Source: Macrostomum lignano (Eukaryota). Taken from it: a stretch of DNA of 64,000 bases. Below are positions 52,823 through 64,000 of the stretch, one piece after another. The stretch is from NCBI GenBank assembly GCA_002269645.1, contig NIVC01000085.1, forward strand, positions 868,001-932,000. The letters are read 5' to 3'. The notes under the pieces were generated by a model. The model had not been told where the DNA came from and ran no database searches. It was given only the letters and a program-made list of their open reading frames with translations. Positions within the stretch are counted from its first letter, which is position 1; the number at the start of each line of letters is the position of its first letter. Made by a program: the position numbers and the translations under genes.

Positions 52823-55285
52823 TGTATTATTCATAAATGATGCTAACACAAACAATGCTCAATATATAATTATTAACGCACTGGGGCGCACGGGACACGA
52901 AATCGGGGTGGGGGTACTCTGGATGTACAGTCAATATTTCAATAGTCAATCAGCTAGTCACTTAGTCATAAGTACAGCGGTAGAATCCAGCGCTGCCTCA
53001 TCTCCCCCCTTCGAGACGGATAGGGGGCATGCCTCGAGTTGGCCGAGCTGGGTAGCGACGTACTGCTGTTTGATTTGGGCCTTGTTCAGATTCGGTGGGC
53101 GGGTCCTGACCGAGTTCGCCAGGCCGGTCCTGACCGAGTTCGCCAGGCCGGTCCTGACCGAGTTCGCCAGGCCGGTCCTGGCCGAGTTCACCAGGCGGGT
53201 CCTGACCGAGTTCGCCAGGCGGGTCCTGACCGAGTTCGCCATGCCGGTCCTGACCGAGTTCGCCAGGCGGGTCCTGACCGAGTTCGCCAGGCGGGTCCTG
53301 ACCGAGTTCGCCATGCCGGTCCTGACCGAGTTCGCCAGGCGGGTCCTGACCGAGTTCGCCAGGCCGGTCCTGACCGAGTTCGCCAGGCCGGTCCTGACCG
53401 AGTTCGCCAGGCCGGTCCTGACCGAGTTCACCAGGCGGGTCCTGACCGAGTTCGCCAGGCGGGTCCTGACCGAGTTCGCCATGCCGGTCCTGACCGAGTT
53501 CGCCAGGCGGGTCCTGACCGAGTTCGCCAGGCGGGTCCTGACCGAGTTCGCCAGGCCGGTCCTGACCGAGTTCGCCAGGCCGGTCCTGACCGAGTTCACC
53601 AGGCGGGTCCTGACCGAGTTCGCCAGGCCGGTCCTGACCAAGTTCGCCAGGCGGGTCCTGACCGAGTTCGCCAGGCCGGTCCTGATCGAGTTCGCCAGGC
53701 GGGTCCTGACCGAGTTCACCAGGCGGGTCCTGACCGAGTTCGCCAGGCCGGTCCTGACCAAGTTCGCCAGGCCGGTCCTGACCGAGTTCGCCAGGCCGGT
53801 CCTGACCGAGTTCGCCAGGCCGGTCCTGATCGAGTTCGCCAGGCGGGTCCTGACCGAGTTCGCCAGGCGGGTCCTGACCCAGTTCGATAGGTAGGCTTTG
53901 GCCGAATCGGTTTGGCTGGACCTGGTCTTCTACAACGCGGCTCAGCTGATCCGCATGCGCCAGGCGATGCGACCGCCTTGACGAGCGATTAGGGCGGTGT
54001 TGGTTCCCTTCTGCACGACGAACTCAGCTCGCTCCTGACGCTGCTGATCACCAGGCGTGTACGACAGGCTCGCTCCGATGGTGTGCGCATGGTTATCGGG
54101 TTGCGTAGTTGTCGACCCATGAGCTGCCACGGGCTCTGCTGGCGCCCAGCATGCGGCACACACCTGTGGTTTAGGAGTACCCTGGACAGGAACGACTCGT
54201 AGCTTTCGGAATGGTCCCACGCCGCAGCTGCTCTCTTGATAGACTGGACCATCCGCTCGGCCAAGCCGTTAGACTGAGGGTGTCGCGGGGAGGTCTTGAT
54301 GGCGCGGCAGCCGATTCTTTCCAGCCAGGCGATCAGATTGGCGTCGTGGAACTCGGCGGCGTTGTCGCTGACCAGCACATGAGGCACGCCGTTTCTAGCA
54401 AAGACTGCCTGCAACACCGGCTTGACTGTCGCCGCGTCCCTGTTTTGCACTCGTACAGCCTCGGGCCAGCCGGACATAGCGTCAACTAGAATGAGCAGGA
54501 GTCCGACCCTCGGCACGTACGCATGATCCATGTGGACTCTGTGCCACGGCTTTTCCTCGTCAGGCCACCTGTGGACACTCTCCAGAACACTCGGGGGCAG
54601 TCTTGAGCAGGTCGGGCAACCTCGCACGTAGGCCTCGACGTCGTTGCAATAGCCAGGCCACCAGGCTGAGTTCTGTAGGCGAGCGCGCGTTGAGCCAGAT
54701 CCATGATGCGTGTCGTGCACAATTCCAAGAATGCTTTGTCGGAGGACAGCCAGGATGACTGGGCGATTACCGTAGCAGAGAACTACCTCGTCGGTCGTGA
54801 GGGCGTGTCGGATGGCCTTGAAAGGTCGTTCGGCCGGCGAGCAGTTTGACCATCTGTTGATTGCAACGCGTTTCATGACATCAAGCAGCAGTCGGTCCCT
54901 TTGGGTCTCTGATTTCAGCTCCTGCCACGGGATCACAGCCTCGCCAGTCCAGTGAATGATGCTTTCCGGCCGCTCTGTCGGCTCGTTGCTGCTTTCACCT
55001 TCGAAATCCAGCCGTGAAAGTGCGTCTACTTGCGGAATCGATTCGCCTTTAGTGGAGATGATGTCATAGTCAAAAGCCATCAGTTTGAGTGCCAATAGGA
55101 GAAGTACGAGCTATCGCATTGACAACCTTCGGCAGCTGGAGCCTCGACCCGAAGATGAATTCAAACGGGCGATGATCCGTTCTGAGAGTGAAGCGCGACC
55201 CTAATAAGAACTGTTTCGCACGCTCCATAGCCCAGACGATCGCCAGTGCCTCTCTCTCGATGTTTGAATACCGTGCTTCTGCACT
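52823..55285 (-). mobile_element. 5'-truncated Ty3/Gypsy LTR retrotransposon (RNase H end, integrase, PPT, 3' LTR)
   Basis: RYSNIEREALAIVWA..TDHRP; integrase HHCC (HDTHH..WWPG..CPTC) and DDE (HMDHA, SDNAAEF, NGLAERMVQ); PPT AAGGGGGGAGA directly followed by TG at 53000; candidate LTR 53000-52823 ending ..AATACA. Confidence 0.92.
53097..53885. repeat. 24-bp minisatellite (GTCCTGACCGAGTTCGCCAGGCGG) inside the Gypsy integrase tail
   Basis: About 33 units; the minus frame reads PGELGQD(P/R) in register with pol. Confidence 0.93.
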
Positions 55286-55913
55286 GCATCAATACACATG
55301 CTCGCTAATGTCATGCTTGTTTATTCACCCTTAAAATTTTATTCAGCACATTTCAGCACCCCGCGAAAGCTGCTTAATGAGACGCCACAGAAGTTCGACG
55401 CTCTCTGAACAGCCAAATTAATGCACCTGTAAGGCATGAGCCCCTGCGCACACTGAGTTCGTCCAGCTTCAGCTTCAGCTGGTCTGGCTTCATAACGTTG
55501 CAGCTGAGCACAGCTGCTCAAACATCATCAGGACTCAGTGCCCCGCAGCAAGGCACCAGTCAGGCAGTCAGGGCGGCTTCAGTTTATTTTGTTTGAATTT
55601 TCCAACTGAGAGCAGCAGCACCTCAGCAGAGCCATGCCGCCTACCGTAGGTCACCCAATCACCGCTGCACCCACTCTGCTGCAATCAAAGCAGTGAATTC
55701 AAAACCCAATGGCCCGCCTCAGCCAGTCGGCATCAGAGTTTTCTTTTCAATTTCGCCTGCCGCTTGTTTCAGCACCCAAGCCGACATTCGCAGTCACAGA
55801 AGCTGCTGGAGGCTGGGCGTCACTCGGTTGCGAATTTAAAATTGAGCAAAGTTAATGGGCTTCCAGTTGCATGCGGATCTCAGCATTGTGATGATGAATC
55901 CAGCCTCACTCAC

Positions 55914-56284
55914 CTGCTCCCGTTGCCACCTGTGCGTGGCCCTCCGTGACCTGCAGCCGAGTGGCGGCTCTGCATGAGTCTTTCTTTCTTTTGCAGCCAC
56001 TTTTCAGATGGAACTCTTGTCCAGAAACCAGCACAGTCCAGTCAATGTCCGAGTCTGCAGCTGTCCTGCCGTTCACTTGCACCAGACTGTTGGCCCAGCC
56101 CTCTGCGTAGCTGCCCGTCATCTGCCGGCGATAGCCATCCTGTGTGAGGACTCGAGCGACTCCTTCCAGCCAGTCAGCCAGTCTCTGCTGACACTCTGCT
56201 CTCTGCTCGGTGAATCCCGCATCGCTAAGCAATCGATGCAGCTTCTCACTCAGACGCCTGTCTTGCTGGGAGTCGTCTGAGAGC
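55914..56284 (-). CDS. Mab-21/cGAS-like nucleotidyltransferase, catalytic exon
   Basis: SEKLHRLLSDAGF..TGSYAEGW..AADSDIDWTVLV gives the GS motif plus DxD of pol-beta-type NTases. Ends GCA G|GTGAGT (phase 1), matching the acceptor at 45930. The start-codon exon was not identified. Confidence 0.82.
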
Positions 56285-56649
56285 CTGGAATGATGCGAGA
56301 TGCGTGTGGGTGATCTGAGTTGGATGGACAGAACAAGCAGGAGAGCTGAGAGTGCAGCTGCTGCTGCTCTCAGACTGGCATCTCAAGCAGGAGATCCCAA
56401 AGACCAGTCCAAAACACATTTCAACCCTGCTGAGTTTTGCAGCAACTTCTGCCCCAAGCTGCCAGCCTGTTGAAAGACGCAATGCGGCAGAGTAGTAGGC
56501 ATGAGGGAAGTTCTGGCACAAAATTGTCAAAATCCCCCTTAGATCAACATCTACTAAGATCTATTCATACATAATGCGCTTACATTTAAATTCAACTATC
56601 ACAATGCAATACCTACACCTCTTTATTTAAATGGGAAAACTAGTCGATT

Positions 56650-56771
56650 CCATAATCGATTCTAGCTAGCATGACTAAGCATTTTTTAGCCTGAACTGAA
56701 CTGCGCATAACCATAATCGATTCAAGCTAGCATGATTAAGCATTTTTTAGACTGAACTGAACTGCACATAA
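56650..56771. repeat. 61-bp direct duplication
   Basis: CCATAATCGATTC(T/A)AGCTAGCATGA(C/T)TAAGCATTTTTTAG(C/A)CTGAACTGAACTGC(G/A)CATAA occurs twice in tandem. Confidence 0.9.
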
Positions 56772-57128
56772 CAAAGGCTCTACAAGGCTCTCGGCTCTAG
56801 TTTCTGACCTCAAGTAAGAGAAAAAGAGAGCTGAATGCACATAAGCAAATGCTGTCTGTGAACTGGGGCAGAGCTCACACCAGTTAATTGCACACCGGAA
56901 ATTGCACACCAGTTAATTGAAATACAAGGTCTGCCTGACACAAATGCAGGAGAAACTGTCTATCCAGCATACGTTCAAGCAACGTATTAGAAACGCCACC
57001 CCTTGCGAGCCGCATTTAAAGCAGACTTCACGTCCACACCTCTCGATATTAAAATGGCCGACGCCACCATGGAAGCCTACGATAAAGAACTGCAGAAGTT
57101 TTTCAAGGATATCATTGAATCTGGCGAT

Positions 57129-57344
57129 TTAGCCAACAGTCAGGGTTACATTGGGAACATTCGACCAACCTGTAAAATCATTCAGATAAACATGATAATT
57201 TGCTTCAGCATCCAATCGAATAGGCTGCTCCAGTTTTTCTATAAACACTCCATTCGATTCAGTAATCCTTCCAGTAACGGTAATCGGAATGCTTTTCTTT
57301 GAGTGTGAAACAACATTGTTCAATCTTTCGACGATGGCTTCCAT
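57129..57344 (-). pseudogene. Minor capsid (penton-like) protein, 3'-truncated
   Basis: IPITVTG..FIEKLEQPIRLD..NYHVYLNDFTGWSNVPNV fits the N-terminal F-x-x-PI-x-L...W-x-x-PN(I/V) pattern of Polinton minor capsid proteins. Only 71 codons remain. Confidence 0.6.
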
Positions 57345-57378
57345 TTTTCTAACCTACTTTTTACTTTATTTTTTAAAC

Positions 57379-58668
57379 CTAAACTTTACTGGACGAATTA
57401 TTGATCAGGTTTACCTTCATTTTCCTCTACAACGCATAGATAATAAACAGATCAACAGCAGTCACAGCACCTTGTTGTTTCCTCTCAATATTTGTAACAA
57501 TATTAACAGGTCTATTGTCTGCAGGCATTTGTCTAGCTGACACGTCAACTCCGAAGATTGGGTACAACTCTTTATACTGTAGTGATGTCATGGCGATCCC
57601 ATTATTCTCTTTTACAGCCAGGTGTGCCAGTTCATTGTAAACTTTACTAATCTTGTTCTCTGAGAAATCTCCATTCTGTGGCAATGCGGGGTACAAATTG
57701 TCACTGATCTCATGTTGAACTGATCGAACGTTTCCATGTAAGTATCTACCTACACTAGTAGTACTCCTCATAGTGACAACAATGTACCTTGGATTGCTAC
57801 AGGAGCCTTCTTTAATGCAAATATTGTGTCTAGTGTCATTGCGCTCATCTCTACACATATAAGCTGTATAGGCAACATCAATATCCTTCTCAATAGCCTT
57901 CAAGTATTCTGCTTTTAGTGCAGTCTTTAGCTCAATGGTTTCAAGATACAACTCCACACCAGCTAATTTTACCTCCATCATCGTGTGGTTAGCTCCAGTC
58001 CAAATTCCTCGATCCCGATCATCTCTAGTCAACCTAAATGTGTAGCTAAAGTTGCTTGTCAACCGATTGAAACTATTACAGAAACCACTCATAAACCTCA
58101 AAGGTACAAAAATATCTACAGACCTGGATTCTTGGCCGCATCATCTGCCCCTGCAAGAGCATAGTTGTATCTCTCCTTTCTCTTTTTATAACCGGGATCA
58201 TTCACATCCCCTTTGTGCTCATTGGGAATAAAGCCAGCTCCACTCCCCAACTGGATGAAATCCGGGTTCTCAATCAAACACTGAGTGTCATAGACAATGC
58301 CAAAAATTGGCTATTCTCTCCAACTCTGTGCTTCCATTCGACACGCTAAACTCTTTGAACATGTACGCCCAAAAGTTACTAATCAATGTCACATTTGCAT
58401 TGTGTAGATCATCATTAGCATGAGCAGCGTCTGCGCCACCTTTTGTCTTGAATTGGAAAGTCATGTAGAATTCACTTCTTAGACTGTGAACACTGACCAA
58501 TGACGAGCAACCATTGTATGTAAAAGTCAACGTTTGACCTGGACCTAAATTAGTTTCATTCTGGTTCTCATGACTAGGAACTCTAACTTGTGACGCTTTG
58601 ATGGTGCTGTCATCACTCAAAATTGGTTTGTTAATATTGTAGAAAACTGGTGTCAGAGGATCGTTCAT
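57379..58668 (-). pseudogene. Major capsid protein (double jelly-roll, Polinton/adintovirus type), disrupted
   Basis: Reconstructed length about 430 codons: MNDPLTP..PILSDDST..TLISNFWAYMF..ELERIANFGI..AGF..VDIFVPLRFMSGF..NPRYIVV..LYP..PIFGVDVS..LFIIY. Two compensating 1-nt frameshifts (about 58305 and 58135) and a premature TAG at 57427-57429. Confidence 0.72.
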
Positions 58669-58711
58669 TTTTTTAGCAAATATTTTAGATGAAAATAAAA
58701 ATATATAAAAA

Positions 58712-60042
58712 ATGAAACAAAAACTCTTCAATCGTATCACTGAACTGGATAAGCTAGCACAAGCGGAGAAACGAGTCACTAACTTAATCAACAAAGAGCA
58801 ACAGTCATACAATGAGTTCATTCAAGCGGCCACCGAGTTTCACAAACCTTGTTACACAGAAGCGAAGAAAACCATTGACACAGTAAAGTAGGTGATATTC
58901 AAGAAAGTCAGCTGCAAAATGTTTTGTCTAACATTCCAACTGTCACAACCCCTCAGCAACCTCAACCATCCCAGCAACCTCAGCAACCTCAGCAACCTCA
59001 GCAACCTCACCAACCTCAGCAACCTCAGCAACCTCAACCATCTCAGCAACCTCAACAACCTCAACAACCTCAACCATCCCAGCAACCTCAGCAACCTCAA
59101 CAACCTCAACCATCTCAGCAACCTCAGCAACCTCAACAACCTCAGCAACCTCAACAACTAAAAGTAAATGATAACTTTTTTGGTCCAGTAGGGGAGCAAG
59201 CAGCCAGTGGGTTTAAATATGTCTTTGGAATTAGCAAATGGCGAGAGCAAATTACTAATCAACCAGCGGACTATCACCTAGAAGTCACAACACAAAGCAT
59301 ATCTGTCATCAAAGATCAAAATTCTAAACGAATCCCCTTTACTCAAAGTTTACTAGACTACATGACTAAAAATCAGGAAAAAATATCGGAGAAGCAGTTA
59401 AAGAATTATAGAGATCTAGTTACCTTCGCTTTAGAGAGGGATATAGACATTCTCAAGACCCCGGAAATTTTACTATTTTTACATAAAAACGGAGTATTCT
59501 TGAACACTTTTAGAAAATATAAACACTTTAAAAAATGGTTTAATTTACCGGATCAAGAAGAGGTCATACAGAGGGCTCTTCAAACCCAATCCCAAGCGGC
59601 TACATCTCAAACCCGATCTCAAGGGGCTACACCTCAAACTCAAACTCAAACTCAAAAGCAACCTACAACTGAAGAAGTACTAGAAGCACTCGAGAAAGTA
59701 GAACCAAATAAGATTGCCCAGTACAGAAACCAGCACCCAGATGAATGGCAGCGTTTGCAGCAAATCTATCCAGAACGAATGAAGCGAATCAGTGATAGAG
59801 TATTTACACCCCGACAACCGTCTCCAGGGACTTCATCTTCCGATCTGTCTTTTGAATCACCAACAGGTGATGGCTTGCCAGATGCTTACAAGCGGTTAGC
59901 TGTTCTCCTTGGCGCAGCAAAGACCGGAATGAAGGATGAGAATAGAAAAGAGTTTGTTCACATCTTAGACAAAATGTTAGAGAAGAAGTATATCGATAAA
60001 AGAGCAAGAGAACTTTTGCTTTCACGGTTTAACAAAAAATAA
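58712..60042 (+). pseudogene. Viral ORF of unknown function with a PQQ repeat (one frameshift near 58870)
   Basis: MKQKLFNRITELDKL.. (frame of 58712) shifts into the open frame 58879-60042. C-terminus TGDGL..YKRLAVLLGAAKTG..EFVHILDKML..YI resembles a C-terminal motif recalled from Polinton-like element proteins. Confidence 0.55.
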
Positions 60043-60058
60043 ATTTCTATTTAAAAAG

Positions 60059-63000
60059 ATGCCAATCATTTTCGAAAAAGACATACAACAACAACAACAA
60101 CAACAAGGTACTGCTCCCGCCGGCCACGAACAGTAGCCAGAAAGGGGGGAGCAGTCAGAAAGCGCATCTCTGGGCCATTGCCCTCAGGAAGTCGCATCCC
60201 CCTGCTTGGTCCGGGGCGCCAGCGTCACTCAGAAGTCGGTCAGGGTATCGCACCGTTCGCCCTTGGCCTCGCCTCCGCGGTCCCTGCAGCTTGAGCAGCA
60301 GCACGTCGTGTAGCGGCTCAGGACAGCGGGCCTCCGACCGGATGACGTGGCCAGCCAGTCGAAGTCGCCGCCCGCGCAGCAGGTCAGAAGGCCGCGTCAG
60401 GCGCGCCCTCGTGTAGAGCGCGGCATTGGTCTCGCTGCCTGGGCCGCTGCGCACTCCGAAAGCCGCACGCAGCATTGCCGCATGCGCAGCGTCCAGCTGC
60501 CTCTCCAAGGCGTCCGTCAGGGTCCAAGTCTCGGCGTTGTACAACAGGACAGTCTCGACAACTGCCTGAAACAGCCGAGCCTTGAGCCCGTCGTCCAGGG
60601 CCTCAGATTGGAGCACGGAGCGCACAGATTGAAATGCGGCCCAGGCCAGTCCTCGTCGTCTCTTCAGGTCGTCGGCAACGTCCGGCACGGAGCCGCCGAG
60701 GTACACAAAGCGCTCGCAGCGGGTAAGCATAAATGCATTCCCGGCAGCGTCTCGGTAATTGATCTCGGCCGGCAAGTCGGAGGGCACCGTGAACACTACC
60801 GTCTTCCGCGCGTTCAGCTTAAGGCCGACCCGCGCCGCTGCCGCCGTCAGGCCATCAAGCAGCCGCTGGGCACCTTCAGCCGTCGATGAAAGTAGCGCGA
60901 GGTCGTCCGCATAGCCGAGAACGGAGAGCCGCTTCTCCGGGTGCCGCCGACTCGTGCGTCTTCTCAAAAGGAAGCAGTCATCCAGGTTGGGCAGGCCGGT
61001 TCTCAGCACCCAGTCCAGTGCCAGCACAAACAGAAAAGGCGCCAAAGTGTCACCCTGCAGCACGCCTGGCGACGTGCTGAATTGGTCTGACAGTCCATCT
61101 GGCGTCATCACCGAAGCGGTCGTGTCCTGGTACATCGCCATGATGGCGGAAATCAGTTGCTCCGGTACATTGTACGCACGAAGCACGAGAGGCAGCGCGC
61201 CGCGAGCCAGCGAGTCGAAGGCCTTGAGGAAATCAATGAAGATCACCACGAGACTTGACTGATGGATGCGCGCCTCCTCGATGATGCGGCGGAGGGCTAG
61301 GATCTGCGTCACTGTGCCGCGATGTGGGCGGAACCCGTTCTGCTCAGTTCGCAGGAACTGGTCCAGCACAGGCTGTAACCGAGCCAGCAGCACCCGGTTG
61401 AACAGCTTCGCGGCGCAGGACATAAGCGAGATCCCTCTGTGCTCCTCCTTTCGTGTCGTGCCTGGCTTCTTCGGGATCGCGACGATGTGCTCGGTTGTCC
61501 ACTCGCGGGGCGCGGCATCTCCAGAGAGGACACCGTTCATCACACGAGCCACCTCAATGGCGACCCTTGTGACTCGCAGCACCTCGATAGGCACCTCGTC
61601 CGGTCCCGGGGCGCGACCTCCCGGCGCCTGGCGAGCGAACTGCACAATGTCGTTGCTGGTCACTGGCTGGGTGTTGAAATCTTCCTGCGACGGCAGCGCC
61701 GTCTCGAGCGGCAGTGGCATCACTTCTGGCAGAGGCGGTGGCGGCGCGTTGACGATATCGGCGAAGAAGTCGCGTAGCTCATTTCTGCGCGCTTCTGGCG
61801 TGTCGCCGGTCAAGTTTAGCACCGTTTTCTTCTTGCGACCAGTCAAGGCGTTGATTGTCGGCCATACGAGCCGATTCCGTTGGTCGAACCCTGCGGAGGT
61901 GACGCTTCGGATGGCATCGTCAACAGCGGCTTGCTGCCGCCTGACATAAACGTCTGACAGGGCTTTCTCGGCCTCTGCCGTCGGTCTCCTGGACCGTCGC
62001 AGCCTCTCGACTGTCCGCCTCGCCTCTTGAACCTCCTTGTCATCCGCCCAGACAGGGAGACTACGGGCTGCAGATTTCATCAGTGGCAGAGTTTTGCTCG
62101 CTGCCGTCGCTACTGCCGCGCTAATTTCAGAGTAGTTACCGGTGCTCGCAGACTCTCCCAGTGCGGTGGCAAACGCGTACGCGAACCTGCCGCGGGTGCT
62201 AGAATCTCGCAGAGCCCGGAAGTAGCGGCGTGGGGGTCGCTTGGGCGGCCTGTACAGCGGATCCCGGATGCGAAGGTTGCAGAAAAGCAGGCGGTGGTCG
62301 GATCGGATGGACAGCGGGGCCATCGTGTCGCAGTCTGTCACCCGACTGCGCTCGCGGTTACGAACAAGAATGTGGTCGAGCTGGGCCCGGCGCGTCGTGG
62401 CGTTTCGGCGCGCGTTCCGCTTTCTTCGCTTACAACCAGCAAAAGTCGCCAAACGAAAAGCAGGCTTGCGGAAGCGCGTGTTCGCCGACACCAGATCTTG
62501 CCGCGACATAAGGTCCGCAAGCGCACTAGAGTTGCCATTCTGGCGCGGGGACACGAACGGGGAGCGCTGGGACCTCTCCGCGACAGCGTTGAGATCGCCA
62601 AGCACCACCAGAGTGTCACGCATTGCGACCGACTCGAGCTGCTCCGACAGGAAATCAAAGAACTCCTGCGCCTCATGCTGATGGGCAGCTGTCGGTGCAT
62701 ACGCGCAGAACAGCCGGGCGTTACGGCCTCGCAGTCTCACATCCACACGCAGAAGCCGAGGTGACACAGGGACACAGCAGACACTCTGCTGCAGCCGCGG
62801 TCCGACTAGAGCGCCGACTCCTCCACGTCCTCGACTGTCCGCTGAGGTGAAAAACAGGGTCCAGCCGGCACCGAGATCCTCACGTTGGAGGCCGTCCTGC
62901 GTCACAATTGAAACTTCCTGCAGCATCACAATGTCCAGCTGCAGATCGGATGCCAGCTGCGCCAGCATTCCCCTCCTCCAAGCAGGTTTGAGAGTGCGAC

Positions 63001-63784
63001 AGTTGAAGGTGGCAATTCTAAACGCGCTTCCTGGTACAGCTGGGGCCCGGACTTGTTGGGCCTCACGGTCTCCTGCGCTACCAGGCAGAACCGATTGGAT
63101 AGGGGCCGGGTCAAGCAAACTTGCAGACTTGCGAAAACGACCTTTCAGCCGTCCTCGCCTGTTGCGCTCACGCCGCCGCTGGATGCGCCGGTGGAGACTT
63201 CGTTTGCCTCGCCGGTTGCCCTTCCTGCCGCTGTTAGCAGCCGCAGCGTCCGTGTTAGCAGAGCGCGGCTCACCGCTCTCACCTGGGCAAGCGCCAGCCA
63301 GATGGCAAGCGTCACCCGGAGGTCGCAGCATATTTGCACCGAAGTGCAAATTTAATAGAACATACAAAAATACTACGATGAAGAGGAACTCAATCTTATG
63401 AAACGTGGATCTGGTCTATTTCCTGCAGGCCACTATCCAAGAAAAGAACGCTCTGGAAATGGCCTCGCAGATCTGATCGCACAAGGGGCCCGGATCTTTA
63501 AGGTTGTTGGTGAGAATAAGGAAAATATAAAGAATATTGCTGAAGCAGCCAGTAGTGTAGCTACAGCGGCTAAAAAGATTAAGGATACAGTCAATGAAAG
63601 CAAACAAAACACAGTTGTTCAACCGCTTGCTCCGCTTGCTCCAACTGCTGACAGCATTGATCCATCTATCTACGCTTCAAATTTGACTAGGGTGCAAGAC
63701 CTGTTGAAAAAAGACACACAGCTGACAGAAAAAGAGACAAATCCCAACACAAAAGACACACAGGTGACAGAAATAGATAAATGA
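60059..63784 (+). pseudogene. Small viral ORF (148 aa when reconstructed), split by the RTE insertion
   Basis: 60059-60088 (MPIIFEKDIQ) joins in frame to 63368-63784 (KYYDEEELNLMKRGSGLF..RSGNGLADL..) once the LINE and one TSD copy are removed. Confidence 0.75.
60089..63359 (-). mobile_element. Full-length RTE-clade LINE, intact APE+RT ORF (ATG 63331 to stop 60155, 1058 aa)
   Basis: APE motifs IATFNCRTL, LQEV, LGDLNA, LDHILV, SDHRLL; RT motifs QNGFRPHRGT, FIDFLKAFDS, GVLQGDTLAPFLF, YADDL, YLGG; 3' (TTG)n tail; TSD ACATACAA at 60081-60088 and 63360-63367. Confidence 0.96.
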
Positions 63785-64000
63785 CCAACAAAAATACACA
63801 CAAAAAAACTAAAAATGAAATAAAAATGGACTTTTCAAACGACTTCTATCCCCATTGGACACGCAATCAGATACAATTTTCTCGCAACAATATTATTCCT
63901 GGGTACTTCCGATGCATTGTTGTCGGTTCATCTGGTTCAGGGAAATCCTTCAGAGTTTTTAACATGCTGCTCAGACCTGGATTCCTCGATTATGACACAC
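63781..64000 (+). CDS. A32/FtsK-like DNA packaging ATPase, 5' part (likely start ATG 63826)
   Basis: Open to the window end: FRCIVVGSSGSGKSFRVFNMLLRPGFLDYD, with Walker A GSSGSGKS at 63925-63948, in a capsid-gene context. Confidence 0.82.
   Translation, partial: MTNKNTHKKTKNEIKMDFSNDFYPHWTRNQIQFSRNNIIPGYFRCIVVGSSGSGKSFRVFNMLLRPGFLDYDT

Follow-up and report, generated by a model that had tools for sequence, protein, structure and literature searches.

A decayed Polinton in a predicted host intron of Macrostomum lignano and the large, young family to which it belongs

The window analysed here is a stretch of 64,000 nucleotides from the genome of Macrostomum lignano (assembly GCA_002269645.1, contig NIVC01000085.1, here C85, positions 868001-932000), at the right-hand side of which lies the left end of a Polinton/Maverick element spanning 34,676 bp. 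The element begins with AGTAGT at window position 56491 and continues for about 27 kb past the window, to its other end at C85:959166. A first-pass annotation of the window had proposed an endogenous Polinton/adintovirus-like virus at 57054..64000. The kind of element was correctly recognised, as its ends, target-site duplication (TSD), full gene set and protein folds agree. The interval has to be redrawn at both sides, and position 57054 is the ATG of a 30-codon plus-strand remnant. Our reading, to which we give a probability of about 0.88, is that a decayed Polinton has its left end here and sits in a predicted intron of a host gene; it belongs to a large and young family, which probably integrates and spreads as virus-like particles in turn. 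The ends, target duplication, empty site, gene set, family size and selection on the capsid gene are observed directly, and the capsid and penton folds are predicted models.

The window copy and its insertion site

The terminal inverted repeats of the window copy are approximately 290-370 bp long, with 90-92% identity between left and right over three aligned pieces. Polinton terminal inverted repeats begin with AG and the target-site duplication is 6 bp long; in the window copy the duplication CGGCAG is perfect on both sides. The flanks are members of a big host paralogue family (112 candidates, 40 scored), and all five host paralogues that were fetched have an empty site, where the flanks are continuous and share a single hexamer at the CGGCAG position as their overlap. 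At roughly 30 bp from the right end of the element stands a donor-like GTGAGT, and close to 56318 an acceptor-like site. Since these splice-like sites lie around the element, the copy is predicted from the sequence to have inserted within an intron of a host gene.

Genes were located in the window copy stretch by stretch, using natural proteins of sister copies as queries. The resulting order is repeat, penton (minus strand), capsid (minus), ORF X, ORF Y, ATPase, two conserved ORFs, PLA2 (minus), integrase, pX-like gene, a 21-kb gap, the C-terminal part of the polymerase PolB, protease and repeat (Table 1). The polymerase, integrase, protease and inverted repeats that the first-pass annotation suggested looking for in adjacent sequence were thus found, and so was a target duplication. 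Its description of minus-strand penton and capsid genes diverging from plus-strand genes up to a Walker A ATPase is right in both genes and strands, as are the spacings of 34 bp from capsid end (57379) to penton start (57344) and of 43 bp between the divergent starts at 58668 and 58712, and the A-rich gene starts. Nearly every element gene, at 57344, 58668, 58712 and 63826 of the window and in sister copies, begins in an A-rich context ending in (A)AAAATG, inside short AT-rich spacers. The AT-rich composition that had been described applies to 57001-60000 (39.5-41% GC), but not to 60089-63359, a LINE of 3.3 kb and 61% GC that sits in the second plus-strand gene. The fully open 1086-aa frame of this LINE suggests a young, active LINE family. 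ORF X has no Pfam family and no usable Atlas match, and the sister copy of ORF Y has a weak match to a colicin pore domain (E 0.013, below cut-off). For the accessory-ORF remnant at 57054, the homologue search returned the self match only.

The window copy is a dead, decayed relic, alone incapable of any step of the cycle. This decay was overlooked in the first-pass annotation: the penton gene is truncated, the capsid gene broken, one gene split by the LINE, and the N-terminus of the polymerase gone. The losses comprise most of the penton gene, about 770 N-terminal polymerase codons (sought in the window element at E<=1 and absent) and the start of PLA2, a further deletion having removed both the PLA2 and the integrase starts; the gains are retroelements. 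One contig of run X4 runs across the junction of the penton deletion and shows no difference there, and contigs of X2 and X4 likewise agree with the in-frame stop about 15 codons before the capsid gene ends. Of the two frame breaks in that gene, one may be an assembly error, as X4 and X11 contigs have an indel there relative to the assembly. None of the runs holding the sequence was listed as RNA; run X11, which may be RNA, gave a few contigs that differ from the window copy.

The predicted host exon downstream of the insertion has no Pfam match reaching the cut-off, and its GSYAEG...SDID motif presumably marks a Mab-21/cGAS-like nucleotidyltransferase. Upstream, in the same orientation, is an ORF encoding ankyrin repeats (L033:7926-9185, minus). 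Ankyrin repeats and the GSYAEG...SDID exon appear to be parts of one host gene, which has at least 40 close paralogues; such genes could be an expanded family of immune receptors. To the left of the host exon is a fragment of a Gypsy-type retrotransposon with integrase domains (window 53989-55290, minus).

Table 1. Features of the window copy, its surroundings and the palindromic derivatives; plain numbers are window positions, and positions elsewhere carry our contig (C) or locus (L) labels
Feature	Position	Strand	Remarks
Predicted host exon with GSYAEG...SDID motif	55909..56318	-	downstream of insertion; large paralogue family
Left host hexamer CGGCAG (6-bp TSD)	56485..56490	+	right copy directly after element end, C85:959166
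Polinton part inside window	56491..64000		continues on C85 932001-959166
Left terminal inverted repeat	56491..56780	+	begins AGTAGT; contains internal 61-bp tandem duplication
Accessory ORF, 30-codon start	57054..57143	+	cut by the deletion that took most of the penton gene
Predicted penton (minor capsid) gene, first 67/285 codons	57144..57344	-	87% to sister copy
Predicted double jelly-roll major capsid gene	57379..58668	-	two frame breaks and a late in-frame stop
ORF X	58712..60042	+	family-conserved; 9-nt (PQQ) repeat tract; broken near 58890
ORF Y, small conserved protein	60059..63784	+	LINE inserted inside, splitting the gene
Nested LINE	60089..63359	-	1086-aa open frame with AP endonuclease and reverse transcriptase; CAA tail; 8-bp duplication ACATACAA
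A32/FtsK-type packaging ATPase, first 58 codons with Walker A	63826..64000	+	continues at L031:44-667 with frame offset
Two conserved ORFs	L031:698-1993
PLA2 remnant, rve integrase, pX-like gene	L031:1999-3706
About 21 kb of satellites and LTR retrotransposon	beyond window on C85		replaces first ~770 polymerase codons
PolB C-terminal part and protease	L033:4986-6769
Right terminal inverted repeat	L033:6799-7166
Palindromic derivative	C633:134497-147606 (L046/L047)		4.85-kb arms, 99.3% alike; capsid module
Palindromic derivative	C1652:28604-39932 (L049/L067)		same insertion as C276; similar to C633, capsid arm
Palindromic derivative	C975:122373-133902 (L061/L062)		replication module on both arms

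Element proteins and their relatives

Several of the element proteins match Pfam families above the cut-off of the family, namely the window capsid fragment (DJR-like_dom, PF21738, 39.6 bits, cut-off 27), the integrase of the window element (rve, PF00665, 39.2 bits, cut-off 32.6), PLA2 (Phospholip_A2_4, 51 bits, cut-off 23.9) and, on an ORF separate from PLA2, Adeno_PX. The ATPase ORF starting at 63826 carries the Walker A motif GSSGSGKS; cut as it is in the window, it falls below the 22.8-bit cut-off of Pox_A32 (PF04665) with 19.1 bits and E 0.00098. Taken together, the capsid and ATPase matches in the window are well beyond chance. The ATPase of a sister copy, 81-86% identical to the window copy, passes with 29.3 bits, so that the proposed packaging ATPase is supported at the level of a Pfam match. 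In the sister protease sequence His, Asp and Cys motifs are seen, which we take to be catalytic.

Structure models support a double jelly-roll fold for the major capsid protein and a single jelly-roll penton for the product of the neighbouring gene. The model of a natural sister capsid protein (mean pLDDT 56) has its best Foldseek matches in the PDB to iridovirus, Sputnik, EhV and PBCV-1 (E 8e-12 to 8e-11), with mavirus also found; there are 191 matches at E<=0.001, and all those listed are double jelly-roll capsids. The sister penton model (mean pLDDT 63) matches the mavirus penton (4e-6), as well as adenovirus penton bases and Sputnik, while the protein has no Pfam match. Jelly-roll similarity, which the first-pass annotation proposed to look for in the capsid and penton proteins, is therefore found in the modelled sister-copy proteins. 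The virophages mavirus and Sputnik are among the best structural matches for both models, at a sequence identity of about 10%. Unlike in virophages, nothing points to a helper giant virus, and the polymerase relatives that have names are animal ones.

Polymerase motifs are visible in the PolB sequence, and a search with its C-terminal part found 4,299 relatives at E<=1e-30. Identity is 41-47% for the 120 listed, many of which carry PF03175; among these, the named ones belong to the Corynactis coral adintovirus and to a soft coral, a stony coral, a sponge, a mussel and a dragonfly. Searches of PDB sequences with PolB and with the ATPase gave nothing informative. A segment inside the polymerase resembles an Endonuclease VII zinc finger below the Pfam cut-off (L036:1664-3841, minus; L062:324-3086), and PF02945 is annotated on many of the PolB relatives.

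The closest relatives of the capsid protein, 11 of 14 matches, are 40-76% identical and are unnamed proteins on short contigs. JGI metagenomes contain 186 capsid relatives, the best 80 of which are 20-26% identical, so that distant matches share only this much with the protein. Among viral contigs, 83 pattern matches included no relative, and a profile search of 50% clusters gave 2,480 matches without names, which were not used for placement. The element family adds a capsid lineage with few close database relatives.

The element is a canonical Polinton, apparently of the Alpha-adintovirus type, and this kind of element is already well known. Alpha and Beta classes of adintovirus are defined by Starrett et al. 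2021 (PMC8502044), and adintoviruses are stated there to occur in all eumetazoan phyla; no flatworm term appears in its text or in the part of the supplement that was searched. The PolB C-part of the window element is 41% identical to the PolB of the Corynactis coral adintovirus, which is listed before the Beta-panel entries in the supplement and so apparently belongs to panel A. Integrase, adenain, FtsK-type ATPase, hexon, penton and PLA2 are common to the window family and the Alpha adintoviruses, and PLA2 is characteristic of Alpha virion modules (PMC8502044). In two respects the proteins may differ: the PLA2X of Alpha adintoviruses carries a pX-like domain at the C-terminus of PLA2, whereas Adeno_PX here matches a separate ORF, and their PolB has an N-terminal OTU domain, whereas Pfam on 921 aa of ours gave only Endonuclease_7, below the cut-off. 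Compared with Polintons/Mavericks generally (Krupovic et al. 2014, PMC4028283; Jeong et al., 10.1101/2023.08.22.554363), copies here number in the hundreds, the PLA2-to-protease block of the window sublineage is oppositely oriented, and the fusogen of nematode elements is not seen. Integrase-linked pPolB1 is reported from 17 of 23 invertebrate phyla by Jeong et al.

The lineage had been put forward as possibly undescribed. No publication about Polintons of this host group came up in our literature search, which covered neither Repbase nor the extended tables of 10.1101/2023.08.22.554363. Planarian Polintons are listed in Repbase.

Family size, sublineages and derivatives

The family is large and young, with purifying selection acting on its capsid genes. 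In the genome, 485 exact matches to the commonest end motif are found (0 for the control), and a capsid search gave 546 candidates, of which the 150 scored are all 79-100% identical (best non-self 89%). For a closer look, 20 paired elements of 8.7-24 kb were sampled from the first 100 end matches listed; a 32-kb pair (C48) was omitted, a half-fetched one (C27) dropped, and five shorter end pairs were handled apart. Most of the sampled sister elements are 14.7-16.7 kb long. Target duplications are perfect and all different in 14 of the 20, agree in 5 of 6 letters in two, and do not match in four. One gene order is found in 18 (one of these is capsid-deleted and one has extra end genes), and the other two are an element with an internal deletion and a palindromic one. 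A single ORF covers at least 90% of the gene for penton in 16/20, capsid in 11/20, ATPase in 10/20 and integrase in 7/20, counts that are depressed by stretch borders. Pairwise comparison of 30 distinct capsid genes with open frames gives a pN/pS of 0.09-0.20 whatever the divergence bin, pairs with pS below 0.02 included. An Rfam search for group I introns gave 0 matches in 10 family loci.

The window copy belongs to a divergent sublineage. Compared with a sister copy, it shows a dS of 0.3-1.7 and, where computable, a dN/dS of 0.03-0.20 (two comparisons are saturated); the sublineage therefore diverged as a working element long before the window insertion decayed. The capsid genes of three sublineages are separated by 0.7-1.6 synonymous substitutions per site, with the protein kept. 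Relative to the main family, the PLA2-integrase-pX-PolB-protease block of the window copy is inverted. The same end, with the protease beside a repeat about 90% like that of the window copy, recurs with a different flank on C462 and C1424, and the inverted order is therefore probably a sublineage trait. The right-end fragment on C462 and C1424 (repeat, protease and part of PolB; L124, L128, L130, L131, L133) lies within a host segment that is repeated at least 5 times. The window copy itself is a case of ordinary decay, of value only as a marker of this sublineage.

Besides full-length elements there are shorter and rearranged ones. Derivatives of 0.6-0.9 kb have no gene matches (C124:22982-23697, C289:58541-59180, C32:1150965-1151833), and one of 3.6 kb holds the penton and capsid genes only (C544:473028-476600); the duplications around C124/C289 and C544 are perfect. 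At C1098:29002-48027 (L068/L069), Polinton pieces are nested or abutting, with two same-sense ends. An accessory ORF of 274 aa, which has no Pfam family, is found at L036:6493-7317 (minus) and near an end in C957, C110, C298 and C87, its position varying between copies.

Three insertions (C633, C1652/C276 and C975) are palindromic derivatives of 11-13 kb, in which a single arm is copied to both ends and the 6-bp duplications are perfect. It is conceivable, if rather improbable, that the family is a living endogenous virus and the palindromes integrated copy-back defective genomes, made during free replication and integrated by a helper. If true, defective-interfering Polintons would be preserved in the chromosomes as a fossil record, offering a direct way to ask whether animal Polintons form virions. 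Each of the three palindrome junctions occurs once in the genome (<=1 mismatch), which counts against a defective-virus origin, as does the concentration of arm differences in the outer repeat, since copy-back alone should give two identical ends. Because of this concentration of differences, we favour fold-back repair via the inverted repeats, possibly after insertion, as the more likely origin. That the palindromes form a mobile sub-family is unsupported, the junctions being unique and one of the 20 sampled elements palindromic. Among the matches listed in the literature search, no title concerned palindromic Polintons.

Readings of the locus and of the family

By analogy with Polinton and adenovirus biology, the gene set would allow a complete cycle. 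The rve integrase would insert linear DNA, leaving the 6-bp duplication; after excision, protein-primed PolB may replicate the element starting at its inverted ends; trimers of the capsid protein, with pentons at the vertices, would build an icosahedral shell, which the A32 ATPase would fill with DNA and the adenain-like protease mature; and PLA2 and the pX-like protein may assist entry and DNA condensation. As the capsid genes of the young sister copies are still conserved, we think it fairly probable that the family forms particles.

Several points weigh against the reading of a decayed Polinton from a family that spreads in particles. The protease lies just below the cut-off of Peptidase_C5 (E 0.00038, 20.6 bits against 21.3), and PF03175 gave no match on the polymerase pieces. 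The capsid and penton models are of low to moderate confidence (pLDDT 56 and 63; TM 0.3-0.46). Many sister copies are frame-broken (the capsid gene is open in 11/20 and the integrase gene in 7/20), partly as they are cut by stretch borders; the pN/pS set consists of open genes only, in pairs that are not independent; and allelic duplicates inflate the copy counts, C276 and C1652 being one insertion and C124 and C289 also sharing arms and flanks. No particle, free DNA or transcript was observed, in material consisting of assembled contigs only. The lack of particles and transcripts, together with the many broken copies and the target duplications around short derivatives that have no replication genes, is also what would be expected if the family moved solely inside cells as a self-synthesising transposon, its capsid module having an intracellular role or being left over from a viral ancestor, with no infectious particles. 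We regard this as unlikely, given that capsid pN/pS is about 0.2 even in the closest pairs, that 18 of the 20 sampled elements retain the standard order of assembly and replication blocks, and that the capsid protein is kept across three sublineages at the synonymous distances given above.

Two further explanations concern the locus itself, and we give almost no credence to either. The nearest capsid relatives, unnamed proteins on short contigs, could point to viral sequence, from a virophage or protist Polinton-like virus infecting a symbiont or food organism, that was mis-joined in the assembly. This is largely refuted by the empty site in five of five host paralogues and the target duplication; host retroelements are moreover nested in the element, hundreds of copies lie on large contigs, all 20 runs holding the sequence bear one organism label, and the named polymerase relatives are animals. 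The position of the element inside a predicted host gene and its low dN/dS to sister copies might instead be taken to mean that the capsid genes have been domesticated for a host function at this locus. The penton deletion bridged by the X4 contig and the late capsid stop covered by X2 and X4 argue otherwise, and the low dN/dS reflects the history of the lineage before decay. Particle formation by animal Polintons is still mostly inferred, and with hundreds of young copies and a conserved capsid module, this family would allow particles, free DNA and silencing to be sought in an unaltered natural setting.

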